A DNA stretch of 64,000 bases, taken from the NCBI GenBank assembly GCA_013115125.1, contig JABANN010000009.1, forward strand, positions 1 through 64,000, written 5' to 3'. The notes beneath the pieces were generated by a model. It worked only from the letters and a program-made list of their open reading frames with translations. It made no database searches and was not told the origin of the DNA. The stretch comes from Perkinsus olseni. Lineage: Eukaryota. Below are positions 5,512 through 58,806 of the stretch, in pieces (the stretch's first letter is position 1; every line of letters starts with the position of its first letter). Both the position numbers and the translations under genes were made by a program.

Positions 5512-6293
5512 TATGTGTTTAATAACAGTCCTGAATGTCGTTCCTGTCAAGTCGGTCCCCTCCCCAGTACTGCGGCGGCGGCGGTCGAGGGAAAATTGCG
5601 CTCGCCTCCCAATGAACAGCGCATTTTGTTTTGCGCGCGCCCAAAAATGTCCGATGCCCTTGAGCTTTTCGCTGTAGGAGCATGCACTCGATCTTGCATC
5701 ACAATCAGACCAAGATTTCCAACGGTTGCTTTGATTGCTAACTGAGCTTCAAAAGGACTACCAGAATCGTCTCTCACACATTAGATTCCATCCTCGGGAC
5801 CGTCCTGAAATTCAAGACAGCAGGCATTTGAACACCTGCGCGTTGAGAGTGCGATCATAAGTGCACGGTGATCTTTAAAATGGGGACGACTCTAGAAAAG
5901 CCGTAGAGAGCCGGGCTGTTTCTAAAGACGAATACTCCGACTTCCGCTTCGCATTAAGCGAGCAAATTCATGCTACTCACAAGTGAACGGTTTGTACTCT
6001 TCGTTTGGATGGGTGACTGAGCTTGATCGATTCATGCAGGCACCAAGCCAGACGTATGATTCGCAAAAGGGAGGAGACGAGTGTTGAACATCTCCGTTAT
6101 ACAGTCTTGGGAATCGCTCCAGGCATTCCGTGCCTGCGCTATTCCTGCCCGTAGACTCTCGTCACGATTCAACTAAAGAAAGTTTTCGCGAAAAACCGGA
6201 AGTATTCGGTAACCTTCTTTCAAAGCTCGGAATTGATTCCGGCTCTTCGCACACTACCGAGCTCTGAGTTACCTATTAAGTGGTAGCTCCCAA

Positions 6294-8852
6294 ATGACCG
6301 TCGCAGCGCCAACAAGCGGCTCCGCAGACGAGCTAGGCGGCCCGATGAATCCTGAAGACATCTATGATGCAGACACGGAAACTCTGATGGGTAAATCGAC
6401 TCCGGAAGACAACACGCGATGGCTTCTGGCGTTGCCGAACGGAACGCAAGAGGAAGAAGCCGCAGGACTAGGTTTCGAGAATGTCAGGCTGAGAAATTTG
6501 TCGTTCTCAAGGACCACACTAGAGCGCTGTGACGCTTTGAATGGTCTTGTTATGATCTGGGCCGTCTTCGTGACAACTGTGCTTTCGGAAGCCTCCGAAT
6601 CTGGACTTACTGAGAGGAGATTTCACATGCTTTCACCTTTTCAGCCCCGCGACGGGCGGCTTCGACTTGACTTTAATACTGAGCAAAATATCATTGATAC
6701 AAAATACGCATAATTCAACACTATCACTATTAACTGTGCACGTGCTTCGCTAGCCGAAACTGCGCAGAGGAGAATTTTTACAGCGACGATGCTAACGCAC
6801 GGCGACTTGGATTTTCTTGATTTTCTATGGTCAAAAAACTCAAACGTCTTGACGCCGATGCACTGCTCTGTCAGAATACCTGCTGAAAGGAGGAGAGTCT
6901 GAAGAGATGCGTTTCCTGATCGAGAGAGAAATCCAAGAACGACAACACATGGAAATCTTGCGGTCGGAGATTCTCAACAGGCGAGGCCTTCCCTCCATTA
7001 CAGTGTGTCGAATAATGAAGGCAGATTTCAGATTCGCCGGGAACCCGGAGGCCGACGAGTCCGATCCGCGAGACGTCTCAGCCTCGGCGATAGTGACGAG
7101 CGCACTGATGGATGCTTCTGTCGCTGAAAGGGTGCCTTCTAGGGTTGCACGATCAAGCCCAAAAAAAGCAACACCAAGGGAACATAGTCCCGCGCCTTCG
7201 AGGCCCCTAGGGGGACCAACATTGGGAGAGTGGAAACCGACGCCGGTTGCAGGAAAGGCTTTTGTTGTTGGCAATCCGAACGGTCGGAGGAAACCCTGGA
7301 AGAAAGTGGCGAGAAAAGTGGAAAAAGTCCGCAAGAAAGAGGCTGATCAGAGTCGACCGAGGCTGGAGCGAATGAAGGAGTATGCGGAGAAGACAAGGTT
7401 GCGCAGGAAACTTGCAGTGGAACAGCGTGAATCCCGCCGGATGGAGAAGGAGCCATTGAAAGAAATTTCGGAGCGCAAGTGCGTGGACAACACCGACGAG
7501 CCCTGCCATCAGAGTGGCTCAACTGAGGGTCTGCCACTCCGGTGCGAAGAGGACGATGAGGGCTTGAAAGACGCGAACGCGACGGAAGATCGGGTCTCCA
7601 CAGAGAGCATTTCCTCTTCGGGTCGATATAGAAGTGACGACTTCGACGGGTCATCGATCTCTCAGCCCAGTCTGGCGTCAGAGGAACCGAATAGGGAGGC
7701 GAGCATAGATCGGGCTCAGTCGAGTGTTGGGAACGAGATTAACGATTGCTCTAGCGAAGGACAGGACACAGCACTTAGTGGGAGCGCGAGCCTGGTCCCC
7801 ACTACACCTGAGGAGGAATCTCAGCATTGTAGTAGCGAAACCGTCGGTGACGAGGCACATGAACTTGCGGCGGGGGGAGCGGGAGGCGACAGGAAAGGAG
7901 GCGATGAACTAAGCGAGGCCAGCGTGGCGGTGGACGAGGAAGAAGGAGAAGGCAGTGTGACAGAATTGGATGGAGGTCTCTGTCAAGAACCTACTGTTAA
8001 AGCTAACGACGACCAGGCCTTGATGGAAGGAGGAGGAGACATAGAGCCGGAAGCTCCCGAGGGTCGGCACTTGAGGTCCCCACCGCCGTCGGAGGCCCTG
8101 GTGAAGCCACCAGGACCGGCAAGCAAGACTTCGACGCGGCGTGTTGAGCGAGTCTTCGAGTCCGCGATGATACAGGATTACAGCTCAATGTTCGGATCCT
8201 TTGCAGAGACCTTCACTTGGGGGTATGAGGCGTCGAAAAACCAAGGTGACACGAACTCGGCTGATAGGTCCCTCCTGAGTCTCGAATATTGCTGTTGACA
8301 CGTCAACTTCGGTCCTTGGAGCTCGGAGGAAGTCTATTCAATAGCTCGGCACTTTGCTGGTTTTCAGGCAACCAGACCCGGGCAACAGATGACCTAGTGG
8401 AAGCCCGTGAAAGAGCACTGCGCGAAACTTTGCAATTGTATGATGGGGCTCCCGTGTAGCTCTCGCTTGGAGACGACGCGACGTCCCTCGCTCCGGTCCT
8501 CATCTCTCGAGCTCCGCTTCCGCAACTACCGGTCCCCACTCGTCAGTCTTCTCGAATGCGGTTGCTCTTTCTCTCTTTAGAAAGCAATTGAACGCCCGTG
8601 CTCCCACGGAATTTCGAGAGTTTGTATCATTGGAGGATCTGGTGCAGCTCAAAGGCTCTTGTAACCTTACTGCTGCCTCATCTCAGGTACAAGCACTTCT
8701 GTGAAGTGTCCCGAACCTTCGAGGTCTTCGACTTCGCCGATTTCCGTCACACCCTGCTGGGCATGGCGCCATCGCTGACAACACCAACTCTCACTAGGAC
8801 CAGTCCAGATACCCAGATCTACTACAAGGCAGGCTGGGTTGAATCGAGATAG
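6294..8852 (+). CDS. Hypothetical protein, acidic/low-complexity, probably multi-exon; boundaries uncertain
   Basis: 463-aa ORF 6907-8298 (basic coiled segment followed by an E/S/G-rich region) with flanking ORF fragments 6294-6713 and 8598-8852 and plausible splice sites; no family recognised. Confidence 0.45.
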
Positions 8853-9025
8853 TGTTATAGGAGTGTACGCAGTGCCTAGCGAAGAAAACGCTGCCTGCAG
8901 AACTGCTGCCACTGCGCCACGAGCATTGCTGCTGTTGATTCTACTGGCGCGTGGCTCGGTGGCCACATTTGTACATGTTTTATTTTTCATTACATACTGT
9001 ATTATCCTATATTACGATATTTGGA

Positions 9026-12000
9026 ATGCCGGCGTTCTGCCACGTGCCACGAGAGCGGCCTCATCTGTCCACAGATGAAACTACTCACCGTTGCCAGTAT
9101 CATTCGTCCACAGTTTTCAGTGGTATACCCCAGGTGGTTCAATCTCGAGTTGAGGTTTACGACGTGGTATCGCGAAGTCTGGCTGGCAATCCCAACTTCG
9201 CGGAGCTGCCACATGGATGCCGTATCGGACCGGTAGGGAACAGGACAATTCACGCGACCGTCTGCTCGAACACCTACAGGATCTTCTGCGATATGCAGGT
9301 TTGGAACCTCCTGTGGACTTGGGGTCGACCCAACATTGACTACAGCAAGCTTTTTGTGTGGCAGAAGGTGAACCACTTCCCCGACAGCAAGTTCCTGTCT
9401 CGAAAGGACTGTCTCAAAAGATGCATCGACCGGTGAGAGACCACATGCCTTCTCGCTTTACAAAGCTCTACCGCTCCGACTACCGTTTGTGTGCAGATAC
9501 GTGAAGCGTCCCCCGGGGTCTCGAAGGTCTCAGGCGATCGAGTCCTTCCGTGTCATTCCGGAAACGTTCGTGCTGCCTCGAGACTACTGCGAGTTCATTG
9601 AAGCTTACACAAATTACAGAGATCTGTAGGTTCCCTCGACGGCTTATTCTCACTCAAAACCGAAAAGCGGCGCGCATGGTGGGGATCGTGCGCTCCTTGC
9701 TTTTGCTGCTTTCTTCTCAGGAGCCTCCCAGTGACCATGTGGATACTAAAACCTGTGTGCCTCTCGCGTGGAAGGGGAATAAGTGTCATCTCTGATCTGA
9801 GCGAAGTCAATTACACAGAGCCGACCATTATTCAGAAGGTAGGCCTTTGAGATAGCTGACGGGAGTGAACTTTCTGTATTTCTTCTGGTTCCAGCGAGGG
9901 AGTTCCCGTGTGAGGATGCAAGCGTGTTACGGTTTCAGTACATCGAGCACCCCCTACTCCTGGATGGCTATAAGTTCGACCTTCGAGTCTACGTTTTAGT
10001 GATGAGCTTCAACCCTCTAGAAGCGTAAGATCAGCTCATCAGGAGATTTTACGGATTTTTCAACGTTAGGTACATCTATAAAGAAGGATTCGCCAGGCTG
10101 GCTACGGTGACGTACTCGTCCAGCGCCGAGGATTGCAAGAATCGGCTCATGCACCTTACAAACACTAGCGTTCAGAGAAATCACGTTGACAACCTCCCCA
10201 ATGATAAACATCGTATGCTTGGAGGTGGGGGAATGAAGCTTTCAGGTCTCAGCGATTTCTCGCTCGATTTCTTGCGAGGCACCAAATTGTCATTCAAGGA
10301 TCTGAAGACTCGGCTGGAGGAACGAGATATAGGCTGGGGAATCCTTTGGGAGAAGATCAAGGATGTGATCGTGAGGACGCTTATCATGTGCGAACATATG
10401 ATAGGCTTTCAGGTAGGTACTGCGTCCAGCACACGAAGGAAAATGGTGTCAAGGAACCCGTTAGAACAACTACTGCTGAATTCATATGCCACAGGACAAA
10501 ACTCTGACAGCTGTGGGGTTCGAACCCACGCCCTTTCGGACTGGCGCCTTAAGCCAGCGCCTTAGACCACTCGGCCAAACTGTCGATATTTTTCTTGCCG
10601 ACCGGCATGCTTGTCTTCATCATACATGTTCTAGGTGAACTCATTCGAGTTGTATGGCTTCGATGTAATCTTCGACGAGTCCCTCCGTGCGTGGCTGCTT
10701 GAAGCAAACTCGAGTCCGAGCATGAACCTCGACACTCTGCTGGATGAGAGGATAAAAATCGCCTTGATACGGTGGGGAGCGGCTTCGCTGGCAAACTTGA
10801 CGCAACAGCTTAGCGAACCAGTGAGAATATCCCGTTCCGAGTCCATATCCCTGTCTTTCCCTTCGAGTTCGTGTCGCTTCTTAAGTGGCCCATTAGGCCC
10901 TCCAATTCTCTGTCAGTAGTAGGCAGCGACTTTTAAGAGTATTTTGGCCAGGGGCAATCGAGGGTCTTCTGAACGGAACAGCTCCTATCTCCACTAAACT
11001 GACCCAGTTGGGCCAGATTTGGTTCTCATCACACTTCACATTACTCAATAACTAGCGTTAGTTCAAACACGAAGGCAACTTAACAGTCTCAGATGGCAGC
11101 ACACGGGATCTGCGCATGCGTGCTGTCCGCTTCAGCGACACAATCGGCGTCGTAAACCCTGTTCCGTTCAACCGGAGAGCTGTTACGGAAGTCCTATCAC
11201 GGAAGCTCGACTCACCAACTAAGGAAGGGGCTTGTGCGAACAAGCCGAGCCGACGGCGGCGGCGGCAGAGCAAAAGCGTAGGGACTCAATCCCTCGCCCC
11301 TTGAGCAGGCTCCACCTCCGGAGACTCGGATGCCTTCTCCATGCCAGGTTTCGACCAGACAACTGAACGCTGATCTTCATGAAATACTTTGCGGTATTGC
11401 TCCCGCCACTTTAAAAGATCGAGACAGCTGTCTCATCGAAACAGCATGTAACCTCTGCCAGTAGTCGTAGGGGACGCTTACGTGGCTCTGTGTAGATAAC
11501 TTCGAGCGTATAGCCCCCGGAGAGCTGTGGGAGAAGGCCGCATCCGTGAAGAATAGGATGTTCCAGCCAATGCATGATCCACTATAGTTTCCACCTCAAT
11601 GAAGTTAACGTCGAGTTTGCTAGTCTGGAGGAGATATTCGGAAGCCTTTTGTGTGCGAGAATGATGGCCTTTGTCCCTCCTCGAGTACACCTCTCCTGTG
11701 CTTTTACGAGCCATTCAACGGACTGGAAAAAGCGCCCTTTGAAAAAACAATATGGAGAGCGATTCTCAGTATCACTCGCCACCATCGATATGGTTCAGCC
11801 TCCGATGGGGACAGCCTCTGTGTCGCGAAAATCTGTGCTCCCCAGCTCCTTCCGTCAACTGTGGATGAAGTGCCCTTCAAGCCAGACAGATCGTATACAC
11901 GGAACTCACACAACGCTGTGATTCCTAGCGAGTGCAAGCTGCACGCTGTGAAAAAATCGCCATCGGAATCACCGCAGAAGAACTCAGCCCGTCGGCTTCA

Positions 12001-23564: not shown

Positions 23565-26500
23565 GCTCGGTTCGGCTAGAGCCTGTGGGCGTATCTTAGG
23601 TCGATCATGGTCATTGATAAGGTACTGTTCTGCCCTGTCGAATCCTTTGAACCAGCGAGGTTGGTCGGACTTGATTTCCAAGGACCTCCTCGGCAAGTTC
23701 TACGGATTCCTCTCGACGCTTCACGTCACTCATGGACTGATGGAAGGAAGAACTGTAAGTTTGCGGAGTTGGCGGATTTTTGGTATGGCAAGGATTCGTC
23801 GGCACTACAATCTGAAAGGGAAAAATGCAACATGCTAAAATGAGGCCACCATGCCTAGTAGCGCAACTCTCGGCGATGGGGAGTGATGGCTGCCTCGCCG
23901 ATCGGCCTGGTGGCCCCATTTTTTGGGGAATTGCATTTTATTCGTGTAGGGTTACGTCATTATCTGGTATTCCATAGAAGGAAGACTACTCGAAAAAATT
24001 GTGGCCGCTATTCCATGTCGGAGAAAACTCAACAGCAGCAGTTATCAATTCTTCGACTGTCGTTCTCTCCTTACTTACCCTCGTCGTTGCGTGCGGCATA
24101 GTGGCCTCATTTTCCGTTACATTTTGGTATCGGTTCTCGCCAGGTTCTCCCGCTGCCCCCGAGAGAATCCACTCAGCCGTCTCCGCCGTCGGACGGCCCC
24201 GGAATGCAGGAAACGGTACGCGTCTTTTCGAATATTTTTATCAATACCAACTTTTTCGCAGATCGCGAAGGACAAGATCCACGCCCTGGAGAGCTCCCTG
24301 ATCACTTGGACGAAGCAAGTGAAGCATGTCTTGAAACAGGAGCCGGAGGCGGCTCTCAAGGACCCGACGAGAAATCCTGAACCGATGGTCGAGGTCGAAT
24401 TCTGGAAGCTCAAGGCCAACAACCTCAACTCGGTAGTATCTTAGGTTGATGAATACGTGCCACGGAATTTCGCGGCAGAGAAGGGAATTTAGGAGTTGTG
24501 GTCGTGCGAGTAGCATAAATTTTTCCTGCAGCTTTCGAAAGGAATGTCCTGCATGAGGGAGTATCGATTTTCTTGCGGAAATTCCGATTTGCAAAAAAAC
24601 ATCTTCTTTGTTTTTTGAGCTCAATTGTATCGGAAATTTCTGGAGTGAAATTGCGGTTTTGCGAGTATCTTTCTCACTTGCCCAGGTCCATGATCAACTT
24701 GAGGCGGAGGAGCTGCGCAGAGTTCTCAGCATCTTGAAGGAGAATAAGAGTACTTATGTCGAACCATTCCGGAGGCTGCAGGAGGAAGTTGAGCGTGCTC
24801 GTGACGAAGCAAATGATAATGTCAAATTTTTATCGTCATTGACGAAATATTTTGAGAAGTTGGCGAGCGACGCGGTCGACTTTGCGGATCTGGAGAAGCT
24901 GTTCGACCCAATCCTGCATACGATATTGTTGGTCTGGAAGCACTCGAAGTACTACAACACTCCGGCGCGACTGGTTGTTCTGATGAGGTAATAATAACGC
25001 GGGAATGTTTTTTAATACCAAATTTCGACGAATTCTTGACGAAAGGGAGAGATGGAATTTTTCTACGCGTAGAAACGTAAAAAGCGGCAAAAACTTAATT
25101 TTTCGGCGTGAAACTGATTTTTGTGCTCTCGGTATCACTCGAATCTGCCAGCGGTTTCTGGAGGCGAGAACAGTTTCAGAACCAAACTTCTCTGAACTTT
25201 TGACGGAAGGGGTAGACGGACTTTTCCTATACGAAACGAAGCTAGAAACGTGAAAAACTGCAAAAAGTGGAAACTCTGAAAACTGATTCTACTGGCGTGA
25301 AACTGATTTTGGTGCTCTCGCTATTGTCAGGCAAATTTGCAACAGCATCATCGCCCAAGCGTGTCGATTTGTTAACGGTCCTCAAGTGTTCGCGATGATA
25401 GCGAACGAAGAAGCGAACGAAGCTGTCGAGAAATTGGAAAAAACTTTGGAAATTTGCACGGCGTTCCGCGACAAGTACTTTTTTTACAGAGATGTTGCTG
25501 AGCAACAGGGCAAGGAAGGTGGCTGGAGAATCCAAACCAGTGCCCTCTTCGTGAGGTTGGATGCCTTCCGGGAAAGATGCCGCGATACTCTCGATTTTAC
25601 TAAGACGATCGTGCAGTTTTTCAAACTCGAACGGGTCGAAATCGGCGGGACGAAGGGCCGGGAGCTGACCGCGTCGCTACAGCAAGTTTTCGAGGAGTTC
25701 AAGCAGGCTGTGGAGGTCTTCCAGGCGGTGTCGTATGATATCATGGACGTCGGGGCGCGCGCTTTTGACCACGATTTTTACAAGTTTCGGTCTGCGGTTA
25801 AGAACTTGGACCAGCGTCTCGGTGCGGTTTTGGGCAGTGGGTTCGACGATTTGGATACCATCCCGGGTCGGCTGAAGTTGTTTGACGCTTTCGAGGGTCT
25901 TCTGGAGCGAGCGATATTACAGGATGAGCTGGAGAGGAGGTTCGCTGCTCTGTTGGGGCAGTACCATGAGGACCTGATCGAGGTGCAGAGGCTGTATCTT
26001 GATAATAAGATGAAGATTTGCTCGGCTACCGATGATGCTCCCCTGTTTGAAAATGTAAGAATCGGGCGAATTTCGGTAGGTTGGTCGTTTAATCTTGAGG
26101 GTCGTGGAATAGATTTCCTCTGTTTCCTCGTGAAAACCGTAATCATTCCGGAAATTTCCGGATTAATTCCTGTTTTTCAGATGCCTCCAGTAGCCGGTGC
26201 TATCTACTGGGCTCGGTCTCTCCGTAGTCGGGTGGCAGGACCGATGCCGAAAATATTGGTATACAGCGAGATGGTGAAGGAGCAACCGGACGATTTTGCG
26301 GAGGTTGAAAGACTGCATTCGGCGCTGTGCAAGATTTTGGACGACTTCGAGCAGCAGATGTAAGGCTGCGTTTTTTCTGTCTCTTTATGACGGTATGAGA
26401 CCTATGATAAGCGATGGCTATGAAGACGCGGTTCGGTAAAATCTTTTTGGAAGGGGGCGCTAAGTGTCTTATATCTGAGCTGGATCTCCTGCCTAGGTTT

Positions 26501-44500: not shown

Positions 44501-46022
44501 AGTAAGATATCTTCGAGGTCGACCATTGTAAGATACGCTGCCGTTAGATACCTCGAGCACATCGAGCTCATGCCGGTAGAGACGCCGCAGTTCTTCGGCC
44601 TGCATCCGAACGCTGAAATAGGGTAGGGGATTCCAAGGCCGATAGCGATCGCTGAACTTCTCGCAGGTTCCGAACTGCTCAGTCGAACACCCTCTTCCAG
44701 ACTCTCTTGAATTTGGACGCTCGATCGGGAGGGTCCGGTGGAGGCGACGAGGACGCTGGCGAGGTAGGGGTGTAAAATTTTGCGGTTTTACTATGAAACC
44801 GTTGATCGATTTCAGTCGATGTCACCGCTGGCCATGGCGGAAGCTTTCTGTAACGATATTCTTGATGACGTGAGAGACATCAAATTCCCGGTGGACGACA
44901 TCAGCCGGTCCATGCCTGATGAGGAAAAAGGTAGGGGGGCATGTGTTCAGCCTATTATATCATGTGTCACCCCATGAAATTCTGGAGGATACGTTATGGT
45001 CGTGGAAGTAGCATAAAATCGAAAATCTTCACATTGATTTCATTATCACGACGCAGTGGGCGCTAGTTGGTCTAGTATGCTTTAACCCTCAGGTCCGTAC
45101 CAGTACGTCTTCCTACAGGAGTGTAGCTACATGAATGAACTCATCTTCGAGATGGTTCGGTAACACACCTCTTCAGTGTCTATTTTCGTCGACGACCCCG
45201 GCAGGTCCCTTCAAGAGCTGCAGCTTGGCTTCAAGGGAGAGCTGACCATGTCAGAAACGATGGAGAATTTAAGCAACGCTCTCATTCTGGAGATCATCCC
45301 GCCGCGCTGGGCGAAGCTGGCTTTCCCCAGTACTCGACCGTTACGCTCATGGCTGACCAACTTGAAGGAGAGGTCAGTCCTGGTGGAGCCTTTCGGCCGG
45401 TCTCAGTCCATTGCGGTGCTCTCAGGTGCGCTCAGCTCGAGGAGTGGACCAACGACCCCTCCTCTGTGCCGAAGGTCGTCGATGTGTCTAAATTCTTCAA
45501 CCCGCAGTCCTTCCTGACTGCCATCAAGCAGCTCTGTTGCCAACAGCAGATGCTCGAGTTGGATAAACTCATGGTCTTCACTGAAGTCACTAAGAGAGAG
45601 AAATCTCAAATTGAGAGTTTCAGTCGAGAAGGGGCGTATGTCACCGGAATGTTCCTCGAGGTGAGCTTGAGAGCTTCGCTGTTTTCGTGATTCGTTTTTT
45701 CAGGGAGCTCGCTGGGACATCAACGGCAACTGTCTGGACGAGTCGAAACCGAAGGAGATGTTCTGCAAGATGCCGGTCATTAACTGCAAGGCTGGCTTGG
45801 CTGATGAATCGGGAGGCGGAAAGAGCGAGAAGGGGATGTACATCTGCCCCATGTAAGTATTCACGCTCTCTGTGTGTCTGTCACGGATTTTATGTTAGCT
45901 ATTGCACACCACAAAGAAGGCCTTACTTTGTCTTCGCTGCGCAATTGCGTACGAAGCACAGCCCAGCTAAGTGGGTGCTTGCGGGTGTCGCCATGATTCT
46001 TGATATCGGTGTTGCGGTCTAA
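21926..46022 (+). CDS. Axonemal dynein heavy chain, outer-arm beta type (DNAH9/11/17-like); several dozen exons
   Basis: ATG at 21926 ([14 protein letters not shown]); DHC tail exons; P-loops [71 protein letters not shown]; stalk KSLGKPP; C-terminus [19 protein letters not shown]. Confidence 0.96.
23505..23564. repeat. (ATC)20 microsatellite in the largest dynein intron (about 22675-23599)
   Basis: Perfect ATC run; the poly-His and poly-Asp ORFs in the track are artefacts of it. Confidence 0.97.
29372..29555. repeat. 64-bp tandem repeat (about 2.7 copies) in a dynein intron
   Basis: GGAATCTTCGCTGTGCGCAATTTCAATTCTCCTTGACTC starts at 29386, 29450 and 29514; partial degenerate copies near 29242 and 29594. 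Confidence 0.92.
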
Positions 46023-46388
46023 GGCTGCTCGCCCGCATGTTGGAAGAAGGTGTTGTGAGTGATAGTACTGCAGTACTTGCGTTGGCAGTCGAGTCAGTTG
46101 GGTACGGAAATTTGGACATGCGAACATACTCTATACGAATGGCAAAGACCCCGAGATTTCAACACGACAAGGCAACTGAGCTTTGAATCTTTCATCTTTA
46201 AACCTTCCGCCAATTAGCCATTTTCACAACATATCTCGTCAGCTACCAGAATGGATCAAACAATTACGTCAGCGGGTCTTATAAGTGAGTACTAGCTTAG
46301 GCGAACATTGTCCTTAAAACCCGGACTTGAAGTGGGATTCTTTAGTAGCTATCCGATCGGGTGCCACCAGCAAGAAAATAGGACGGAA

Positions 46389-47434
46389 CTATACCAGCGT
46401 ACCGTTAACAACGACATAAACAACAAAACAAAGCTTGACAAAATATCTGATATACAGAAGTGACAGAAAGGAGCGACTCCCTAACCACGACTGAGAAGAC
46501 GCTGAGATTGCGTTGGTGCTCTGTTTCATGTACGGGACCAACAAGCACGCATCACCACCGCAATGTAGCATTACTATAAAGATATTAGATAGAGGTGTCA
46601 GTATCTGAGAAGATACGGACTGGACTTCGATGGAGGAGGGGCCGCCAGAGAGCAGTCCCCACTTACCAAGAGCTGTACGAAGATCAGTGCTCCGATGAAG
46701 GCACACGTGTAGGCCTTCCCGATGACGACCGCCGTAGTTCTCTTGCCGCCAAGAGCATCGCAATCTAGGTCGAGGAGCTCAGCTAGAAGATGGCTGGTTA
46801 GAGATGACGTTATATAGAATACGCAGGGTCCTGAAAGCGAGACGAGACGATTGAGGGGCGAACTGTCGGGACGATAGACCCGGTACGGAGCGTTGGAGAA
46901 GACTAGGGCCCGAATCTTACCGATATTAGGTAGGGGGACTTGATTAAGATGACATGCGAAGACCACCTCTAACAAGAACCCCGCGGGGGTACAGAGGAGG
47001 TCCAAGGGAGGCTTCCTAGAAAAGGCGAAGGGCTTGAAATTGTACACAATATTCAGACCGAGTCCCATCGCGAAGAAGAAGGGGTAAGATACCCAGTCTC
47101 CAGTGGCGATTGATATGATTGTAAGAGGTATTAGATTGGATATGGAAATCACTTTCCACAAGCCAGAAAACTCAGAGATTGAATCTTGACCACCAAACCG
47201 GCCGAGCGACTTCCGAGGGTTGTACTTGTCAACGTCGGTATCGGCCATGTCGTTGATACCAAACATCATGATGTTGACCGGAAAGGTGAAGTAGAGGAGG
47301 CCGAGCCAAAACCTGCACGTCGATAGAAGGTCCAATCGACCGCCAAGAGGGAAGAGATAATACGGCAGGACGGTGAACCATATAATGGGACGAGATATCT
47401 TCAGGTAGAATTTGACGCGGGAGAGGTCTAGCAT
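46389..47434 (-). CDS. UbiA-family membrane prenyltransferase, CrtEb/LyeJ (lycopene elongase)-like, copy 1; exons 47434-46921, 46830-46667, 46604-46389
   Basis: ISRPIIW, FPVNIMMFGINDMADTDVDKYNPRK (first Asp-rich motif), YNFKPFAFSRKPPLD, AELLDLDCDALGGKRTTAVVIG (second Asp-rich motif); multiple TM segments; splice sites give in-frame joins. Confidence 0.85.
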
Positions 47435-48816
47435 GGGACAAAACACGAATGGATCTATAAAACCAGTGGTCACTAAGCTCGCACAGTAGATTTCTCTTGC
47501 ATGCACCAAAAGTAGAATACGTGATAGTACCTAGAACGCTTGTGCTGTCCTGTGTACCATAAGTACGACAACTACATCACAGAGCCTTGCCAAGGCTCGA
47601 GGTCTTCGAGATGGGGCAAGGCGCGGCACCCCCTAGCGTCGGTAGGGTCGACAAGACCTCACGACGGCGAAGAGAGGATAACGCGAAGGCAAACGATGCC
47701 GAGACCGAAGGCGATGCTACACATGGCAATCGCGGGTTCGGCGGGTACGAGTTACCTCTAGTTTGCTGGCGTAGGAGGGACAACCGAGACACTAGGTGTT
47801 CCGTTGTAGACACAACATAACTCGGCATCTATTCGCGCAGGTTTTAACCTAGACGCTGGTGGGGGAGCTGTAGAAGCACCTTCGATAGTAGGACCAGTCC
47901 GCGAAAGTTGGACGCGATTTGCCGAAAAGAACCGATATATGAAAATGAGCAACTACGAGAATAGCTTACTCGTAATGATCGATCAACTCAATGTGAGAAC
48001 GCATGCACCAAATATCTCTACTGCTTACTGACTGCTAGTGTCTCGTACCATTATGCGCCGCCTCGAACTCTGATGCATGAGTATGCATTTTAGATTACAC
48101 TGAAGCTCGATCGAATTATCGATCAACGGCTCATGAGTCCGACTGTACCACTGTTTGAGCCCGTCTCAAGTAGCCCCACCGTAATGAATAATAGTGCACG
48201 CATACACCTAGGCGCGCCGATCCCTGACGTAAAACCACTGACAACTCAAACAGACGTATTCACGAGACTGTGTATGCAGCACCAGAGTTTGTGGTAAGAG
48301 AGATTGAGATTCAATGGGGCGGCGATGGAAGCTCATTCAGCTCCCTAGGAGAAAGTGGTGAAGATGAAGCCAAAATTGTTTACTCGGGGAGCTAGCCAAG
48401 ATAGGCATAAAAAACTGCAATAAACTGCAGTCTGACGTTCTCCCGGAGTGCCGAAGCAACGGACCATGCCCTAGCGCCCCTCTGCAGCTCCTACGTACCA
48501 TCAGGCCAGGACTTGACTGCACCGAGCGTAAAACATGTAGGAGACCCCGAGAATACTTCACGAACCCTGACGGCTCTACTGAGAATTCTAACGCACGTAT
48601 TCGGGAGACAGGGGGACGGTCCCCCGGGGACCATCACGGTGGGCATGCGTGCGAAGCGTTCGACTGGGTATGGTGGCAACATGGGCAGCCCATGTTCCTA
48701 GCAAGAACTAGGTAGCACACAGATTGCCTCTCTACAAGTAGGTAGCCAGGAGAATCTGGAGCCCTCATCAATGGCTCTTAGAACAGTTATATTTTCTATC
48801 TCACTCGATCTCCCCA

Positions 48817-50115
48817 TGATAGTGTCTCCCACACTTACGACCTGGAGAGCTACGTTGATGATATCTCGCCCCGGTTTGTGGTTTGTCATGGTTTGGCTTT
48901 ATCTTTGGCCAACTGGAGGTCATTGGAATGTTCTTCAGACATTCCCTTTCTACATCGGTCTTCTATCTTGTACACTTCCTTTCAATCTACTCATGTTCGG
49001 TATGAGTGATATGGTAGACTTTGATGTGGATCAATTGCACGCTCGCAAGGGTAACTACACCTGGGGTGCGAGAGCGAGCAAAGTGGAGTTAGCTCAGCTG
49101 CCCCTCATGATGGCCATCAGCAACCTCTGTCCAATGGTCATCCTCGTAGCGGCTACTGGGCACATGAGCTCACTCATCTGGGTTCTCGGTTTTTTTCTCT
49201 GTAATATCATTTACAACCTGCCCCCCATGGCAGTCGCTCGAAAGGGCCCCTGGGAATTCCCTTGTATGCTCCTCGGGATCTCCTGCATCACGATGTCTTC
49301 GTGCGATGTGAACAAGGTTCCTACCCCGTCAATTGGTAATACCATTGCACAGCTAATCTCTTGGTTCCATGCTTTACGCTGTCGTCGTTAAAGATCCTCT
49401 GGAGTTCGTCTAGGACCCCTTTTCGCTACTATCTCAGAAGTTTAGGAGCTCGATGACGGTAACGGTATTTGATACAGCAATGCCTGAGGATTAATCTGAG
49501 GGAGTTACCTTAACCTCTCTATCAATACCCATCCAGTGTCATTCACCCGACGTCTCCGTTGGTCCTACTTACGACATTTCCTCAGGCGGGTGGATGTTTC
49601 ACTGGCTGGCAATGGCGCGGGGTCAGCTGTTTGGAGAAATTCTCGATATCGAGGACGATGCTCAAGTCGGGAAGAACACTACAGCTGTTAAAATCGGCGA
49701 AATGAGATCTCAGCAACTTATGTTTGCTTTGACTGTGTGTTTAGCCCTGGTAAGGAATGATCCCTCTCCGTTGATCGGATCAACTTGATCCTTGTTGCTC
49801 GAAATCGCGGCAATTCTGCCTTTGAGCCTATCGCGCCGCAACGCGTTCACTCTCGAAAAGCCTGTGTGAAGTATGTTAAAATATCTAACAGTCTCTACTC
49901 AGGTATCCTACATTCTAGTCGGTTCCGTGGTGCTAACTGTCTACTATGTCGTAGATATGGTGCTCTCAGTCTTCTCTCTTCTGGCACCCGAGCGTATAGC
50001 TATTGACGAAGCCAGCTTCAAGTCGAGATCATATGGGCGATGTTCACCTGAACAAGTACTCACTTATAAGATTATCGTTCATGTATTGACACGACTGTTT
50101 CGCTCATCAGCTTGA
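48817..50115 (+). CDS. UbiA-family prenyltransferase, divergent paralog (copy 2); introns 49336-49585 and 49750-49902; start and 3' end approximate
   Basis: ISRPGLW, LPFNLLMFGMSDMVDFDVDQLHARK, YNLPPMAVARKGPWE, GEILDIEDDAQVGKNTTAVKIG; same two intron positions as the minus-strand copies. Confidence 0.82.
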
Positions 50116-51632
50116 TCTGGCTTCATTTTGAGAATTGATGTGCTGTGTCCGCGAAGTTGGCCGATAGGCTAGGGGCGATACCGAATAACTTTTGTAAGTC
50201 CTTCAAAAATTATTTCTCAAGCTCCGTCAGCATTGCCTGGTGGAGCGTATAGGGGATAGATACTCAACTCAACACTTTAAGGACAGGCTTGGAGAGCAGC
50301 TTATCCAAAGCTTAGTCTAATTACTTAGCATCCGCGTGGCGGTGCGACTGATAACACCGCTCATGCGAAGACATGCATGGTATTATCCAGCGTGCGCATA
50401 CTGGAGGCGGTATCCTCCACTGGTCGTGTTCCACCTACTACTGACGGGGAGCCCAACGAAAGGTCCGTGAGCAGCACGAACACGATGAGTATCTCGCGAC
50501 CCAGGATGATCTATACTTTCTATGATCTCTGTCGCTTTATTCTAAGACGGCATTAGGGATAGAATATAAGTGCGTCCTATGCTATATAATTTCCGCTATC
50601 TGAGAAAAACGTGACGTCCCGATCTACTGCATCCTAAACTACGAATAACGGATTCGGTGAACTTACCTGGCTCCCTTGTTGTGAATTGATGCTCGACTGC
50701 TCAACCGGAGTACTCATATAGGAAATTGGGGTACTGAAACCGTAACCGCTGTGATAGCTAATAGCAGCTAATAAGACGCCATCAGCCGCAGCGATGGAGA
50801 CGAGACGCGTCACGTCACGTCACGTGACGAGACGGGTGGGAGCTAGGCGTGCGCACATAGCTGTGGCGTGCGCGCACACGCATCTCACAACACTTGTTCG
50901 CTACGCCGACAGCCAGCGCGAGGAAGCAGCCCCACCCTACGAGACGCCCTAAGCCGTTGTGCTTTAGTTTAGTTTGTTCATTTCTGAACTGACAGTTTAA
51001 CGAGCAGCTCGAAAGACAGCTGGAACGCCGAGTCTATATAGGTGTAAGCCGTTAATTGTTCTGCCTATATGGGGTGAGAAAATGCATTGTGTTGACTAGC
51101 TTCGTATCCTACTAGCTTCGACCTAAGATTCCTAGAGATCTGGTTCGATGCGTAGCGGCCTCACGCTGAGAGCATTGAGCACCTCCTATCGAGAAGAGTC
51201 TCCTCAGGGGACCCGATCTTTAGCTGGAGCTTCGCACTGCTCACTCAGTCATACTGAGGGTGGGAGTCGCTAGCGGCCAGATCCAACGCTGAAAGAACAA
51301 CACGGTCTCGAGAGTTCCGATCTCAGCTGAGAAAACCGTGATGATCCGGAATGGTCATAGAAAAGGGCTAACTAATAAGCCCACGGATGCTCATCGTCCA
51401 TGATTCCACTGCGTAGAGGATACACCGTGTGAGACACACAGAAGTTAGTCTTCAAATTCTGGTGGAAATCTCCTCGGAATACAAGCAACCCAGATATTGC
51501 AACACAACAGTGACCGAACTGTTTAGGGCACGACGCTTACTTCTACGACACAACAACTCGTCGGGATTCAACCGCTAGAGTCAATGGAATCCGCAATGCG
51601 GATAACAGAGCGGATTCAAAGTGGTGACGGAG

Positions 51633-52688
51633 CTACGCCAGGATACCTTTGGCGAATGCGTAGACAACCAAAGAGAACTTGGCTGTATATCTAGCATACA
51701 TTGATAGTAAGAAAGAGCGGGACCCTTCCCATGATTGACACGCCGCTTGGCCTCTGAAAAAGCTTTGCCTTATATACGAGAGCAGGATGGACGCATCACC
51801 ACCGCAATGTAACATGGCTATAAAGATATCAGATAGAGGTGTCAGTATCTGAGAGAAAACGACCTGAACTTCGATGGAGGAGGGACCGCCAGAGAGCAGT
51901 CCCCACTTACCAAGAGCTGTACGAAGATCAGTGCTCCGATGAAGGCACACGTGTAGGCCTTCCCGATGACGACCGCCGTAGTTCTCTTGTCGCCAAGAGC
52001 ATCACAGTCAATGTCAAGAAGCTCAGCTATCATGTGGTTAGTGAGAGTTGATGACACATAAAACAAGCAGGGGCCTGAGGGAGATGACGAATCAAACAGT
52101 CGTTAGTCGACGTTCGATGGCACATAGTGGAGACACCCTCACCAGCTTGGACTTACCAGCCTTGGGTAGAGGCACTTGATTGAGATGGCATGCGAGTGTA
52201 ACCAAAATAAGGAAACCCACTGAGGTGAAGGGAAGATCCCAAGGAGCCTTCCTTGCGAAGGCGAAGGGCTTCAAGTTGTACAAAATGTTCAGACTGAGTG
52301 CCACAATGAAATAACCAGAGTAAAGTATCCAGTCAGCAGTGATGATCGACATGACGACCAGAGGTATCATATTGGATACCAATATCACTTTCCATAGACC
52401 AAACAGGTCAGACTTAGAGGCCTGGTTACCGAAGTAGTCGTGCGCCTTCCGAGGGTTGTACTTGTCAACGTCGGTATCGGCCATGTCGTTGATACCAAAC
52501 ATCATGATGTTGACCGGAAAGGTGAAGAAGAGGAGGCCGAGCGAAAACCTCCACGTCGCTAGAAGGTCCAATCGACCGCCGAGAGGGAAGAGATAATACG
52601 GGAGGATGATAATCCATATAATGGGTCGTGATAGCTTCAAGTAGAAGTTGACGCGGGAGAGGTCTAGCATGGGAAGGGGAGTACTCAT
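51633..52688 (-). CDS. UbiA-family prenyltransferase, CrtEb/LyeJ-like, copy 3 (3 exons)
   Basis: MSTPLPMLDLSRVNFYLKLSRPIIW...GINDMADTDVDKYNPRK...AELLDIDCDALGDKRTTAVVIG...MLHCGGDAS; paralogous to copy 1 with the same exon structure. Confidence 0.85.
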
Positions 52689-52770
52689 CCTGATTCGGAA
52701 AGTCGAAACGATCTCATGCACCATCCGAGGAAGCACGTCGTCTATTGACCCGCACTACAGCCAGAGTGTG

Positions 52771-53627
52771 CTTCAAGTACGAGTTGTCCAAGCCGTTGAG
52801 ACAACCAAGGCTAGCGATCATGCGAGCTAGCTGGGTGCTGCAGCCAGGCCCAGGCAGGTGAGCGTCCGCTTCACAATAGCGCTCAATCCCGAGATTAGCT
52901 GAGGAAGGATGAATCTCGCCGTTCTTTTCTTGTTCTCCACTGATGTCTGTTCACGCGTTTCGAAGATCTCCGAGGAGTTTTCGTCTGGCCCGTTCATCGT
53001 GTAGCGATCCCACCTGCCTGACCCGTCATCTAGTATCACTGTAGATGGCTGATTGAGAGCACCAACACCTGGGTTTTGCCATCTGGCATCCAACCTTTGA
53101 CCTTTGGTCCTCGCATCATCAACTATTCAGCTTAGCTTCGGCGTGTGTGTGAGTTTACAGTCCAACGTCGGTTCCGCAGAGGTCTAGCATGCCCCAACTC
53201 GAAAACGTCAAACACTCTCGTACGTCATCCGAAGGACCATCTCGTCCGTAACTCACGAAGCCGACTCGCCCTGGAGCGGGAGTATCCTTCAAGTACGAGT
53301 TGTCCAAGCCGTAGAATCAACCAACGTTGGCTATCATGCAAGCTGGCTGGGTGCTGCAGCCAGGCCCAGACAGATGAGCATCTGCTTCTTAGTGCCGCAC
53401 CGATCTTCTTGGAGATAAACTGAGCGAGGTTGGCCCTCTCCGACTTCTTGTTGTCCACAGACGTCTGGTTACGCGCTTAGAAGGGTTCCGAGGGGTTTAT
53501 CTCGCCTGGCCCGATTCTTGTGTGGTCCCGTAATCCCGCCTGCCTACTGCGTCATTTAGTATCCCTGTAAAAAGACTAATTGATTGAGAACACTTTGCAC
53601 ATCAACGATTCAGCTTAGCTTCAGCGT
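52771..53627. repeat. Diverged direct duplication (about 52771-53144 and 53287-53627) of a decayed coding-like fragment
   Basis: Both copies start CTTCAAGTACGAGTTGTCCAAGCCGT, share CTGGGTGCTGCAGCCAGGCCCAG and end ATTCAGCTTAGCTTC(G/A)GCGT; the minus strand reads WAWLQHPAS..RLGQLVLE with stops and frameshifts. Confidence 0.8.
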
Positions 53628-54116
53628 AGTTTCTTATTGAACGAAATAGAATCAGCGATAAGAACATCACATCACCGCAGTCAGGATGCATTGATGACTT
53701 GACCTTTTCTTGCAACTCAACGCGATCCCTGCCTAGTGTTACAGTCTTTCTCTCGAGTGCGACTGACGGAGTGTAACCAACGACAATCAAGCATCCCCAT
53801 GAAAACGGAAGTACCGCGGAGAATGAAAAGCCGACACCAAAGCGTCACATGACGTTCGTATTATCCGATCAAGACGTGAGGACAAAATATTTCGCCACGT
53901 GTCTTCTCACTCAGAGACCCTAACAGCTGAGCAGAAATTCCCTGAATAATAGAGCGTTGATTTTCGCGAGCAATAAGCGCATATTTATCAACTAGAAAAA
54001 ACTTATGAAAAACACCATACAGGTTGGGATTGTGGATAGACCAAAACCTGTGGCAAACCATCATGCTAAATCGAAATCGCCACGCCTGCCACTTCACTGC
54101 TCAAGCGCCTTCTGGC

Positions 54117-54383
54117 TCAAACCGCGTCATCGCAGTTGCCAGACTCCAAAGTTGCAGCTTGTCCCGAGAAATAAGTCACCATGGTGTTGGTCATATTGTT
54201 GTACAGAAATGTGGACAAGTCGTCATCTTTCGTAGTGCAACATTGGAGAAGAAGGCCATGTGATTTGAACACACAACTTGTGTGACACGAGTCGTCGTCG
54301 TAGTCAATCAGGTTGTAATACTGCCCACCCAGACCAGAGAAGCCTGTGGCTAGCGTGATGCAAAGAACAGTGAGGGCCAACAT
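54117..54383 (-). CDS. Possible small secreted protein or gene fragment
   Basis: Signal-peptide-like MLALTVLCITLATGFSGLG followed by a Cys-containing segment; no family recognised, may be a relic. Confidence 0.3.
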   Translation of the reverse strand: MLALTVLCITLATGFSGLGGQYYNLIDYDDDSCHTSCVFKSHGLLLQCCTTKDDDLSTFLYNNMTNTMVTYFSGQAATLESGNCDDAV

Positions 54384-56314
54384 GTGAGAACGGGGCGAGA
54401 CAGAGCTGACCAGTGAAGCCGTTATAGTAATGGCATTTGCAGAATTGTGAAATCAGACGCGATAGGAGCTCAGGGAGAACGTTGAAAACGAACGGCTTTG
54501 TTGATCGCCTTCTGTGAACCCTTTCGGTTAATATATATTCCACGGTCTTCCAGATTAACAACTGGAAACACTGGTCCAGACTTGTAGTAATAACAATATC
54601 AATAACCACTATGATAGAGAATACCCACTTTCTATCACAATATATAACGACGTAGGTGGTAGATGATAACCACCAATGTAATAAGTAATCACAGCTTACT
54701 TCATGATTAATGATTGAATCGGATTCAATGAATCCACAGCTTGCGTACTAGCGTCAGGAATCCTGACTCAGGATACTCAAGCCACCCACAGAGTGTCCCG
54801 AGGACATCAGAATGGGGGGAAAAGGAGACAATCTACACAATTGTCAAGACTTCATCATGTGTGTCCTTTTGGGACGCAACAGCTTCAATACGTAGCGTGA
54901 CGAGGAATCCACGCCGTTGCCGGGACAATTGGGCGCACAGAGAACAGACGTAGGTGACAACATTGGGATTTATGGTACGCAGCAGCAATGGATGTAGTTG
55001 TCACTATAGTGCACGAGCGTGGTTCGTGCTCCATGTCGTAGTTGCGCGCTAGCGCTGGCATGCAGATAAGAATCTTCTGAGATGTAGGTAATACCTAGTA
55101 CTTGAAGCGTACATACCTGGTACTAGCAGCCTGTGGTGTACGGACTTCTTACAAAAGGCCTTTGAACTGTCGTTACTTCGTTCGCCTAGAGTTCTGTGAG
55201 GCACAGCCTCAGACAAATTGAGAACTAGCGAGGGCTGTCCGGAAGTAGCAGGTGTGCTAAGAGTTGCTCGCCAACGCACGCGATGTATCACAACCTGTCC
55301 AGAGCAGATTCGGGGAATGATCAACTACGCCATAGGCGTGTGTGTGAGTTTATAGTCCAACGCCGGCTGTTCCGGCTTAGACTCTTGACGATGTGCACAG
55401 TTGGGAAATCACTGTAGCTTGATAATATCAAGTTGATATGCAGTGCAATCAGATGGCCCGTCAAGAAACCTTCCTCAGGGGTACGAACAGAGGGGCTTCG
55501 CTCCCTCCTTGCAGGATCCGCTTACACATCCGACGGGCTGTGGTGTTTCAAGCGTTTGAGGCAAACTGTCGAAAAAGTGGTACCACTTCATAGTGCGAGA
55601 TGGCGCACCCAATCCCTCGTTTGCCACACCATGCAGCCTGTACGACATATATTTCTGACTTGGACAGGTTGAATCAGAGGTTCCGAAAAACCGTGCCATC
55701 ATACTCAAGCATGAAGGTAAGTTCACCGAAACTTCACAGCGCAACGTGACACCATGTATTCTAATAATCGAAAAAACTTCGACAATTTACTCACTTGAAA
55801 GCGTGTGCAATAAGCTCAAATACTTGCACTCTCAAAGAGGTTTTTGGGACGGACTCGAAAACCCGTTCCTGCTCTATCAGGCACTCCGGCTACTTCCTCT
55901 GCTCGATCGCGGCGTACGCAGCAGATGTAGCGTTGAACCAATGTGCGGAAGCACTGCTCGCTTTGTTGTGCGCAGTTCCGGTGTAGTCCATTCTGTTGGG
56001 TCCTTCCGTTGCTTCTTCCAGTACTTTTTGAGGGCTCATCCGTCAGTCCAGGGTTCAATCAACTTCGGTGCCGATCACAGAATGTGTCAAGCCCGACGTC
56101 GAGCATTCTCATGGTTTATCCTTTTCTCGGTGACACAACAGCAGAGCGAGGAAAGACCGAGTTCATCGCTGGAGAGACAACTCTCGTTGATTTTCCGTCA
56201 CGACTGTCACTCAATTCACGAACTCAATCCAGTCGCCCTGCGCACCACGCTGTGATGAGAAGAAAGAAAGACGCCGTGGCTTCCATGACGGCATCGAACA
56301 CAGACGGCGGAAGG

Positions 56315-57487
56315 CTAGGAGGCCAAAGTACCATTGATGAGAGCGTAACCTCCAAAGCAGACTCTGAGTGCATATCGGAGGTACAAAGAAAGAAGAAAAG
56401 AGGGGCTACCCTCCCATGGCCGAGATAGCTTTGAGCTAGGGAAGAAAGTAAATTTTATATACGTTGCCAGGTTGGAAGCATCACCACCGCAATGTAACAT
56501 GGCTATAAAGATATTAGATAGAGGTGTCAGTATCTGAGAGTATACGAACTGAGCTTCGATGGAGGAACGGCCACCAGAGAGCAGTCCTCACTTACCAAGA
56601 GCTGTACGAAGATCAGTGCTCCAATGAAGGCACACGTGTAGGCCTTCCCGATGACGACCGCCGTAGTTCTCTTGCCGCTACGAGCATCACAGTCAATGTC
56701 GGCAAGATCGGCTAGCATTTGGTTGGTCACAGCTGACGCTACATAAAATACGCAGGGGCCTAAAGAAAAATATACGGGAGGATGTGCTGATCAGCTGCTC
56801 CTGGTTCAAGGCTCCGCAAGATGATTGTACCGCCTGATTCTGATTTTTACCGATTCTGGGTGACGGGATGCGATTTAGATGGCATGCGAATAAAACCAAA
56901 GTGATCATTCCCGCTGGGTTAAAAGGAAGATCCCATGAAGCCTTCCTTGAGAAGGCGAAGGGCTCAAAGTTATACAGAATATTCAGGCCAAGAGCCACAG
57001 CCAAAAACAGGGGGTAGAGGACCCAGTCACCAGTGATTATTAATATGATGAGGATAGGTATTAAGTTAGATACCAATATCACTCCCCACAGACCGACGAG
57101 CTCAGATTCAGTGGCCTGGTTGCCATAGTAGTTGATCGATTTAGTGGGGTTGTACTTGTCAACGTCGGTATCGGCCATGTCATTAATGCCAAACATCAGG
57201 ATGTTGACCGGAAAGGTGAAGTAGAGGAGGCCGAGCCAAAACCTCCACGTCGCCAGATGGTCCAATCGACCGCCGAGAGGGAAGAGATAATACGGAACGA
57301 TGCGGAACCATATAATGGGCCGTGATACCTTCAGGTAGAAGTTGACACGGGAGAGGTCCAAAATAGGAAGAGGAGTATTGACAGAAATACGCTGTAATCG
57401 GTATTGAAGCCCATTGAACGGGAGCTCACTTCTATAAAGAAACGGTAATCTAACGCTGCTGACACAAACGGTTGCGCCGCACCTCAT
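56315..57487 (-). CDS. UbiA-family prenyltransferase, CrtEb/LyeJ-like, copy 4 (3 exons); start uncertain
   Basis: VSRPIIW...GINDMADTDVDKYNPTK...ADLADIDCDARSGKRTTAVVIG...MLHCGGDAS; the Met residues of copy 3 (MSTPLPML) read VNTPLPIL here, and the nearest upstream in-frame ATG is at about 57487. Confidence 0.78.
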
Positions 57488-58095: not shown

Positions 58096-58175
58096 TGACA
58101 GCTGTGGGGTTCGAACCCACGCCCTTTCGGACTGGCGCCTTAAGCCAGCGCCTTAGACCACTCGGCCAAACTGTC
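58096..58175 (-). tRNA. trnL-AAG: tRNA-Leu(AAG), identical to the copy at 10505-10584
   Basis: 80/80 identical to 10505-10584; same cloverleaf. Confidence 0.95.
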
Positions 58176-58806
58176 GATGATGCAATGCTTAAAACTGCAC
58201 CTTCCATCTCCCGCAAGACCTGTTACCTGCAGAATGAGTATGCGAGATGCAGACAAGTAAGACAGGAGAGCGACGACACGCATGCACAGTCCCACTGTAC
58301 ATGCGTGCTGACAACTTGAACGTGCGAAACGAAAGTGACTGTCGATGAAGTCGAAAGAGCTCTGGCTGATTCGCCTGGCCTCGCAGCGGTAGTTACATTC
58401 GCTTCCGCCACAACCCGGCGAGGTGCTCGTGCTACTATCCTAGACCAACACAACCACCAGAAGGGTCTTACGGGTAGCGGAGTGCCGACGCCTCTCGAAC
58501 GTACAGGCAGGTAGTTCCTAGCCCGAATGCATCAGAAATGGAAGTCGGTTCGTGAATTCTTGAGTAGCGTAACGCACGGCTTCGATCCTCTTTCATTCAC
58601 GGAGTTGGAGAAGACATTCTCTAGCGAGAGGCGTCCGAGAACTTCGAACGAAGAACACCACCATAGCCAGCGAATGTAGAACTAGACCCACGTTCTCTCG
58701 CATCAAGTAGTCAATAGACACTCGAAATTTGACGAGAAAATCCTGAAAGAAATTTGAAAGAACACAACATCGCCCTGTGACAAGAAACAAGTAACATCAA
58801 CAGTTT

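Follow-up and report, generated by a model that had tools for sequence, protein, structure and literature searches.

Array of UbiA-family genes on a Perkinsus olseni contig

The window analysed here comprises positions 1-64,000 of Perkinsus olseni contig JABANN010000009.1, from a draft genome labelled G000. Between positions 46389 and 57487 it contains four three-exon genes of the UbiA prenyltransferase family, three on the minus strand (c1, c3 and c4) and one on the plus strand (c2), which lies head to head with c1. An earlier note, made from the DNA letters alone, had described this layout with the same two introns in every copy, and gene models scored against annotated relatives confirmed it. 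All introns are GT-AG and occupy identical positions (intron 1 in phase 1, intron 2 in phase 0, enclosing an exon 2 of 164 nucleotides, nt); both positions were common to all eight gene models built. The products of c1, c3 and c4 share 69 % identity with one another and 29-30 % with that of c2.

The c1 gene (47434-46389, minus strand, 297 amino acids, aa) is 99 % identical to P. olseni protein P0002. Exon 1 (46921-47434) opens with an ATG at 47434 and encodes the SRP motif, the first acidic motif NDxxDxxxD and a YN pair; exon 2 (46667-46830, 164 nt) encodes the second acidic motif ExxDxxxD and KRTTA; exon 3 (46389-46604) includes the stop codon. Intron 1 (46831-46920, 90 nt, phase 1) is in frame and stop-free, so that one annotation reads through it, and intron 2 (46605-46666, phase 0) is 62 nt long. 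The c3 gene (52670-51633, minus strand, 297 aa) consists of exons at 52157-52670, with an alternative in-frame ATG at 52688, at 51911-52074 (164 nt) and at 51633-51848 (stop included). Both c1 and c3 look intact. In c4 (57364-56315, minus strand, 298 aa), homology begins at 57364 with ATT in place of the aligned start codon. Exon 1 was modelled as 56851-57487 from the nearest upstream in-frame ATG (57487), and is followed by exon 2 (56596-56759, 164 nt) and exon 3 (56315-56533, stop included); the catalytic residues are kept. Among the joints listed for sequencing run X9, one contig skipped exactly the predicted c4 intron 2 (56534-56595, 62 nt), and a second contig from that run retained c4 intron 1 unspliced. 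Run X9 was taken as RNA by guess only, and the copies were not ranked by its depths.

The c2 gene differs in both its active site and its 3' end. Exon 1 (48816-49335), which DNA runs X1 and X2 cover without differences, encodes Ser for the conserved Asn of the first acidic motif. A 250-nt phase-1 intron precedes exon 2 (49586-49749, 164 nt), and in exon 3 (49903-50115) homology ends at 49977 and gives way to 45 unrelated codons. Up to that point c2 matches P. olseni protein P0289 at 90 %; beyond it 37 C-terminal residues are gone. Within exon 3, positions 49982-50071 resemble the 3' flank of c1 (46277-46366) at 78 %, which suggests that the true 3' end of c2 has been lost. According to the available part of PMC4106721, the corresponding Asn of AfUbiA binds Mg2+ and its loss abolishes geranyl diphosphate binding; by analogy, c2 is probably inactive in this genome and probably represents a decaying copy. 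The partnership of c1 and c2 envisaged in the earlier note is weakened by this apparent damage. The c1/c2 layout is not an assembly slip, because runs X1 and X2, from two studies (one may be the source sample), each carry 47293-50321 in one contig with 0 differences.

Between c1 and c2, on the minus strand at 48501-48557, lies a leftover of the C terminus of a further c2-type paralog (14 of 16 residues equal to the end of P0289), which was also present in a contig of the divergent run X7. Because this tail lies on the minus strand, a recent inversion was considered as the cause of the head-to-head layout; deletion of the c2 end, with the tail left from an older event, would be the simpler account, because the tail departs from the P0289 sequence and, in run X7, runs collinear with c1.

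An exon 1 search of G000 gave 11 matches, which correspond to nine copies of the gene and a fragment in two pieces (C3232:67185-67386), and the genome holds at least this number. Five copies are c1-type and lie on the window contig, three are c2-type and one, with the same introns, is on contig C2619. One c2-type copy, on C3244, is frameshifted by a 14-nt insertion (~5660-5681), which by eye has the shape 7 + inverted 8 + 7. The introns were in place before the duplications, and the order proposed in the earlier note, expansion after intron gain, therefore stands. Substitution patterns show purifying selection among the five c1-type copies, with a ratio of nonsynonymous to synonymous divergence (dN/dS) of 0.22-0.41 in 10 of 10 pairs at dS 0.4-1.0. 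Over the end of exon 2 and the start of intron 2, a tract of ~100 nt is identical between c1 and c3 and near-identical in c4 (about 46645-46745, 51890-51990 and 56575-56675), against an overall dS of 0.5-0.7. Gene conversion among these three copies is likely. As a whole, the array is an unremarkable tandem expansion in which some decay has occurred.

Placement within the UbiA superfamily

Spliced P. olseni relatives of these genes exceeded the PF01040 gathering cut-off of 34.2 bits (P0005, 36.4 bits; P0120, 44.1 bits), and the unspliced c1 frame of the window scored 30.3 bits against that cut-off. The top Foldseek matches of an AlphaFold model of the c2-type protein P0120 (predicted local distance difference test score, pLDDT, 91) were to AfUbiA (template modelling score, TM, 0.62-0.70). 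By profile and predicted structure, the genes are members of the UbiA superfamily. A sequence search of the PDB gave 0 matches, and a search of the ESM Atlas returned UbiA clusters only, which is a lead. Two other G000 matches were set aside, that to PF01040 on C2303 being low-complexity and that on C2757 being Cox10-like.

The AfUbiA active-site residues reported in the part of PMC4106721 available (R22, N68, D72, D76, Y139, D198 and D202) correspond, in our own alignment, to R15, N61, D65, D69, Y131, D192 and D196 of c1, and are kept in c3 and c4. The NxxxDxxxD and DxxxD motifs and the active-site Arg and Tyr are likewise present in these three copies, with Ser replacing Asn in c2. Alignment and structural model show a multi-helix UbiA fold and, for c1, c3 and c4, a Mg2+/diphosphate site that is intact. 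In the modelled open reading frames (ORFs) no N-terminal leader of plastid or other type stands ahead of helix 1, although an upstream exon may exist.

The best NCBIfam models for the Perkinsus proteins were PRK12875, PRK13105 and PRK13595, far ahead of MenA, UbiA, HPT and ChlG. We take PRK12875 (NF009516) to be LyeJ and PRK13105 (NF009608) to be CrtEb, both lycopene elongases, a naming that agrees with the controls, with an Arthrobacter crt cluster read from its ORFs and with a flavobacterial protein that exceeds the cut-off and adjoins a CrtI/D gene. The Perkinsus scores were 33-67 bits (c1 best 63.5; P0005 67.4) and did not pass the curated cut-offs of 205, 217 and 248 bits, respectively; the PRK12875 cut-off was passed by 12 of 77 scanned proteins. 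With the menA profile (PRK06080, cut-off 277), P0005 reached only 19 bits, and the profile scan listed no match of the Perkinsus proteins to Coq2/UbiA, Cox10, HPT or ChlG.

Phylogenetic trees were reconstructed with mixture models, using as LyeJ-type references the 12 proteins over the PRK12875 cut-off; LyeJ and CrtEb references were assigned by profile or cluster, not by assay. Proteins shorter than 265 aa, six with short coverage and six bacterial paralogs without a recovered ORF were left out, and later trees were subsets of 58, 45, 30 and 36 rows. The Perkinsus proteins and their homologs, here termed clade X, separated from CrtEb/LyeJ plus a sister group with support of 100/100. With distant outgroups, support for this separation was 96/98 and the sister group did not resolve, which weighs against a firm placement. 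MenA formed its own long branch, and E. coli UbiA and CyoE fell outside clade X, in trees built without eukaryotic Coq2, HPT or ChlG sequences. The approximately unbiased (AU) test rejected Perkinsus with CrtEb/LyeJ as one clade (P=9.3e-5), as run on a quick LG+G4 tree of 30 rows with groups named after earlier trees had been inspected. The likeness to CrtEb and LyeJ noticed earlier thus holds for best matches and not for membership. Perkinsus genes may well belong to an unnamed UbiA subfamily outside its closest characterised relatives, the lycopene elongases, a placement to which we give just under even credence. Profile score, tree and linkage all set the genes apart from LyeJ and CrtEb; they may still work in the manner of an elongase.

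Within clade X, a eukaryote-type subclade (96/93) contained Prymnesium, Chrysotila, many environmental proteins, EukProt MRDRNA2 and Hematodinium. Perkinsus grouped with MRDRNA2 and Hematodinium with support of 100/98; the latter is represented by GEMP01, a prefix assigned to Hematodinium in the accessible text of PMC6642578. Bacterial members came from marine Flavobacteriaceae, Kiritimatiellia and soil bacteria. A sample of 250 Bacteroidota gave one genome with clade X apart from the centre genome, 9 of 111 Flavobacteriaceae had it, and the members numbered one per bacterial genome examined. Two bacterial-type clade X domains (P0145 and P0147) are fused behind leucine-rich repeats. A recent transfer from Flavobacteriaceae had been entertained when marine Flavobacteriaceae supplied the first named matches outside Perkinsus, and was rejected once eukaryotic and further homologs were added. 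AU tests with the same settings rejected Perkinsus with Flavobacteriaceae (P=1e-5) and with all bacterial members (P=5e-7). The earlier note had taken the genes for a prokaryote-derived acquisition; nesting among Hematodinium, a EukProt protist and haptophytes, together with rejection of the bacterial groupings, argues against such an acquisition in this lineage. On the evidence of the trees, Perkinsus has multiplied an old eukaryotic lineage and did not receive the genes recently from a prokaryote. The eukaryote clade itself may have arisen from bacteria in the distant past.

Descent of the Perkinsus genes from a eukaryotic ancestor in common with dinoflagellates, and perhaps with further groups, is plausible, at slightly less than an even chance. 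With similar reserve, duplications within Perkinsus may have produced three subfamilies; the rapidly evolving one, to which c1, c3, c4 and two further copies of the window contig belong, turned up in no species but P. olseni. Proteins of c1 type appeared under P. olseni names only and sit on a long branch; c2-type genes were also recorded for P. marinus and for P. chesapeaki. Literature searches, which lacked most subscription journals and supplements, yielded nothing on these genes or on clade X.

Candidate acceptors of the clade X enzymes

As in other members of the family, Mg2+ held by N61/D65 and D192/D196 (c1 numbering) would, with R15 and Y131, allow the prenyl diphosphate to be ionised, and the resulting prenyl cation would attack an acceptor inside the membrane. 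Less securely, this acceptor may be neutral and lipophilic, because the pocket resembles that of the elongases: at the position of an E. coli UbiA Arg that precedes the first Asn by seven residues, clade X has mostly Asn, like LyeJ and CrtEb. It would not be a home-made carotenoid. The Arg of E. coli UbiA has a carboxylate-binding role. The leading candidate would be a chorismate-derived naphthoquinone or menaquinone-type lipid, modified on its ring or side chain alongside the canonical MenA step. A lipid other than a carotenoid is favoured here as acceptor, a quinone-linked lipid being the first candidate, though at slightly less than even probability. The fuller scenario is speculative and unlikely as a whole: clade X, which marine protists (a plastid-free parasite among them) have in common with scattered bacteria, would use elongase-like chemistry for an undescribed prenylation of a non-carotenoid acceptor in vitamin-K-type quinone or related membrane-lipid metabolism, and P. 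olseni would have multiplied a fast-evolving branch to provide various modified quinones or lipids suited to low-oxygen shellfish tissue.

The strongest alternative, itself improbable, is that clade X is a carotenoid elongase adding C5 units to lycopene-like or polyene ends, with a bivalve-host carotenoid or an unrecognised route supplying Perkinsus. The top NCBIfam matches are elongase models, and the SRP..W, P.N..YG.ND and NP.K motifs are common to both groups. However, the scores are no more than a third of the cut-offs, the AU test separates the groups (P=9e-5), and clade X has YN and ExxD where the elongases have YS and A/S-xx-D. Synthesis of C45/C50 carotenoids, as suggested in the earlier note, would also call for a backbone, and an exon-by-exon search of the draft G000 genome gave 0 PF00494 candidates for phytoene synthase and no CrtI, for which matches covered only profile positions 1-51 of 504, the flavin adenine dinucleotide-binding start, and resemble other flavoproteins. 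This search has limits: plant-type PDS was not searched separately, and no Coq2 was found either. The same search found IspH, in keeping with the earlier expectation that the methylerythritol phosphate (MEP) pathway is retained.

Neither crtB nor crtI was near clade X in any of 160 bacterial loci (1.66 Mb), and the control Arthrobacter crt locus was recovered. In the 80 genome loci the gene lies between ftsX (71/80) and leuS (74/80); in the 80 soil loci it lies before CutC (47/80) or a PAP2 gene (17/80), near ftsZ. In the soil loci (L148-L227), the ftsQAZ cluster recurrently ends with a block of GT28, PHP, PAP2, clade X UbiA and CutC or a second PAP2. Among 111 Flavobacteriaceae, the one over-cut-off elongase adjoins a CrtI/D gene, and in the C45 producer Jejuia the elongase is reported to adjoin a desaturase (PMC4256183), a layout matching the LyeJ-type gene and not clade X. 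Phytoene synthase is encoded elsewhere in 44 of 45 clade X Flavobacteriaceae genomes, picked from the 80 loci for their long contigs, so that carotenoids are available there, which counts against a non-carotenoid acceptor. The background is 100 of 111 (Fisher P=0.18), and CrtB co-occurrence was dismissed as uninformative; two clade X genomes (G282 and G319), which may be incomplete, have no CrtB match. Clade X is kept by Hematodinium, which has lost its plastid according to the part of PMC4802802 at hand. In P. marinus, as far as the available text of PMC5573998 goes, added beta-carotene is taken up, carotenoids are without effect on growth, and two PDS candidates are said to be unexpressed. 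Carotenoid synthesis by the Perkinsus clade X enzymes is probably not the case.

The clue to a quinone comes from gene fusions. In five proteins, forming four 90 % clusters (P0264/P0122 of Chrysotila, P0129, P0311 and P0312), the clade X domain stands behind a chorismate-binding domain, and the two full-length fusions scanned (P0129 and P0264) exceed the TIGR00543 cut-off for isochorismate synthase. G000, the genome of a non-photosynthetic parasite, has an intron-rich, PHYLLO-like gene on the minus strand of C2845 (~2440-9480) with MenF, MenD and MenH parts in a row; no MenC part was seen in it, and a MenC (o-succinylbenzoate synthase)-like gene lies at C110:435-1460 (minus strand, E 1e-22). 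The Men pathway is described for plants and algae in PMC6189191, whose available part does not mention Perkinsus.

Several observations weigh against a role in quinone chemistry. The fusion occurs in a single haptophyte-type subclade, where it may go back to one event, and the Prymnesium clade X protein stands alone, unfused. A canonical MenA/UBIAD1-like gene with short exons is present in G000 (C222, ~24600-25850, minus strand), MenA is present in those clade X Flavobacteriaceae whose genomes entered the tree, a search of G000 gave no true MenB, and no men genes were among the frequent neighbours of the 160 bacterial homologs. Candidates for MenB on C14 and C3013 proved to be crotonases. The match on C2792 (L110) is PabAB-like; its stop-free frame of >1030 aa resembles a PabA-PabB-PabC fusion, the outer parts being named by our own reading. 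PabA, PabB and PabC act in folate precursor synthesis.

That clade X is the missing MenA was once the lead reading, and was dropped when the gene on C222 was found. A second MenA, prenylating the ring of 1,4-dihydroxy-2-naphthoate (DHNA) or menadiol, perhaps in a different compartment or with a chain of different length, is somewhat less likely than a carotenoid elongase. The isochorismate synthase fusion and the MenF-D-H and MenC genes would suit it, as would the weak menA-profile matches in G000, three of four of which are clade X exon 2s. Opposed to it are the MenA genes already present, the lack of a MenB match and an identity of only 14-16 % between clade X and E. coli MenA.

Lower still in probability is an enzyme with no foreign acceptor, that is, a UbiA-type terpene synthase, a prenyl-diphosphate hydrolase or a polyprenyl-phosphate enzyme. 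UbiA-type terpene cyclases exist, and tandem expansion is typical of specialised metabolism. The second motif, ExxDxxxD, has an extra acidic residue; of the 80 soil loci, 55 include a PAP2 phosphatase gene (immediately downstream in 17 and immediately upstream in 14), and 68 of the 80 genome loci have uppP close by. However, loci within each set are closely related and their neighbours not independent, uppP lies on the opposite strand beyond ftsX, and the commonest downstream gene in the soil loci is CutC. Least probable of all is that the expansion is mostly birth-and-death turnover, with one working ancestral copy and extras that drift or decay: the truncated, motif-changed c2, c4 without an aligned ATG, the frameshifted C3244 copy, the C3232 fragment, the remnant at 48501-48557 and the shared exon 2/intron 2 tract fit it, but dN/dS is low at appreciable dS, frames are open with active-site residues kept, and the spliced c4 joint was observed.

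The rest of the window holds further features. Non-coding DNA at 47604-48004, in the c1-c2 interval, had ~10-fold depth in DNA runs, a very high summed contig depth in X9 and no Rfam match, and is probably a dispersed repeat. High-copy repeats lie between c3 and c4 (53139-53176, 55338-55380 and 54400-55600), with a depth in the thousands at 55361, and a 310-nt direct duplication (52747-53043 and 53263-53569) is 74 % identical. An Rfam scan of the window returned three tRNAs only: two identical copies of tRNA-Leu(AAG) 47.6 kb apart (10505-10587 and 58096-58178) and a tRNA-Arg(CCG) at 17030. An intron-rich dynein heavy chain gene of steady G-rich skew occupies about 25000-46000 on the plus strand (Dynein_C match at 45139-45690), ending just left of the array.

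Clade X and characterised prenyltransferases

UbiA subfamilies differ by acceptor, and many are unassigned. Members of clade X occur in parasites of the dinoflagellate lineage, in haptophytes and in marine bacteria that can be cultured. Its substrate would name an end use of Perkinsus isoprenoids, the products of the cryptic plastid being described as an open question in the part of PMC5573998 available, and would show whether elongase-like chemistry reaches beyond carotenoids. It would also caution against taking weak LyeJ/CrtEb matches as proof of C50 pigments. The menaquinone-pathway genes of G000 are a lead of their own.

LyeJ resembles clade X in its UbiA fold, in the SRP..W and P.N..G.NDxxDxxxD..NP.K motifs, in the second Asp motif and in providing the best or near-best profile. 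It differs in identity (15-24 %), in score (33-67 bits against a cut-off of 205), in forming a separate clade and in having YS and SAIPD where clade X has YN and ExxD; clade X also lacks crtD/crtI neighbours. CrtEb, whose function in C. glutamicum is described in PMC3598387 (available part), shares the same motifs, and its His before the second acidic motif is also found in most bacterial members of clade X and in c1 and c3. Identity is 16-20 % and scores are 32-53 bits against a cut-off of 217, and CrtEb sits in a crtE-B-I-Ye-Yf-Eb operon, whereas clade X does not. MenA/UBIAD1 has the Mg2+/diphosphate site in common with clade X, the haptophyte-type members of which are fused to a MenF-type domain, but identity is 14-16 % and G000 has its separate MenA/UBIAD1-like gene on C222. 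No EboC model was among the listed NCBIfam matches and no ebo-like genes were frequent neighbours, yet EboC offers a precedent, as a UbiA cluster of unknown substrate in Bacteroidetes and algae (PMC5133447, as far as its available text goes). The closest counterparts are the proteins of Flavobacteriaceae, soil bacteria, Hematodinium, Prymnesium and Chrysotila, which fall in the same clade X (100/100) with 22-36 % identity to the window copies. The records seen for these proteins carry automatic names only and, unlike Perkinsus, each bacterial genome examined has a single copy.

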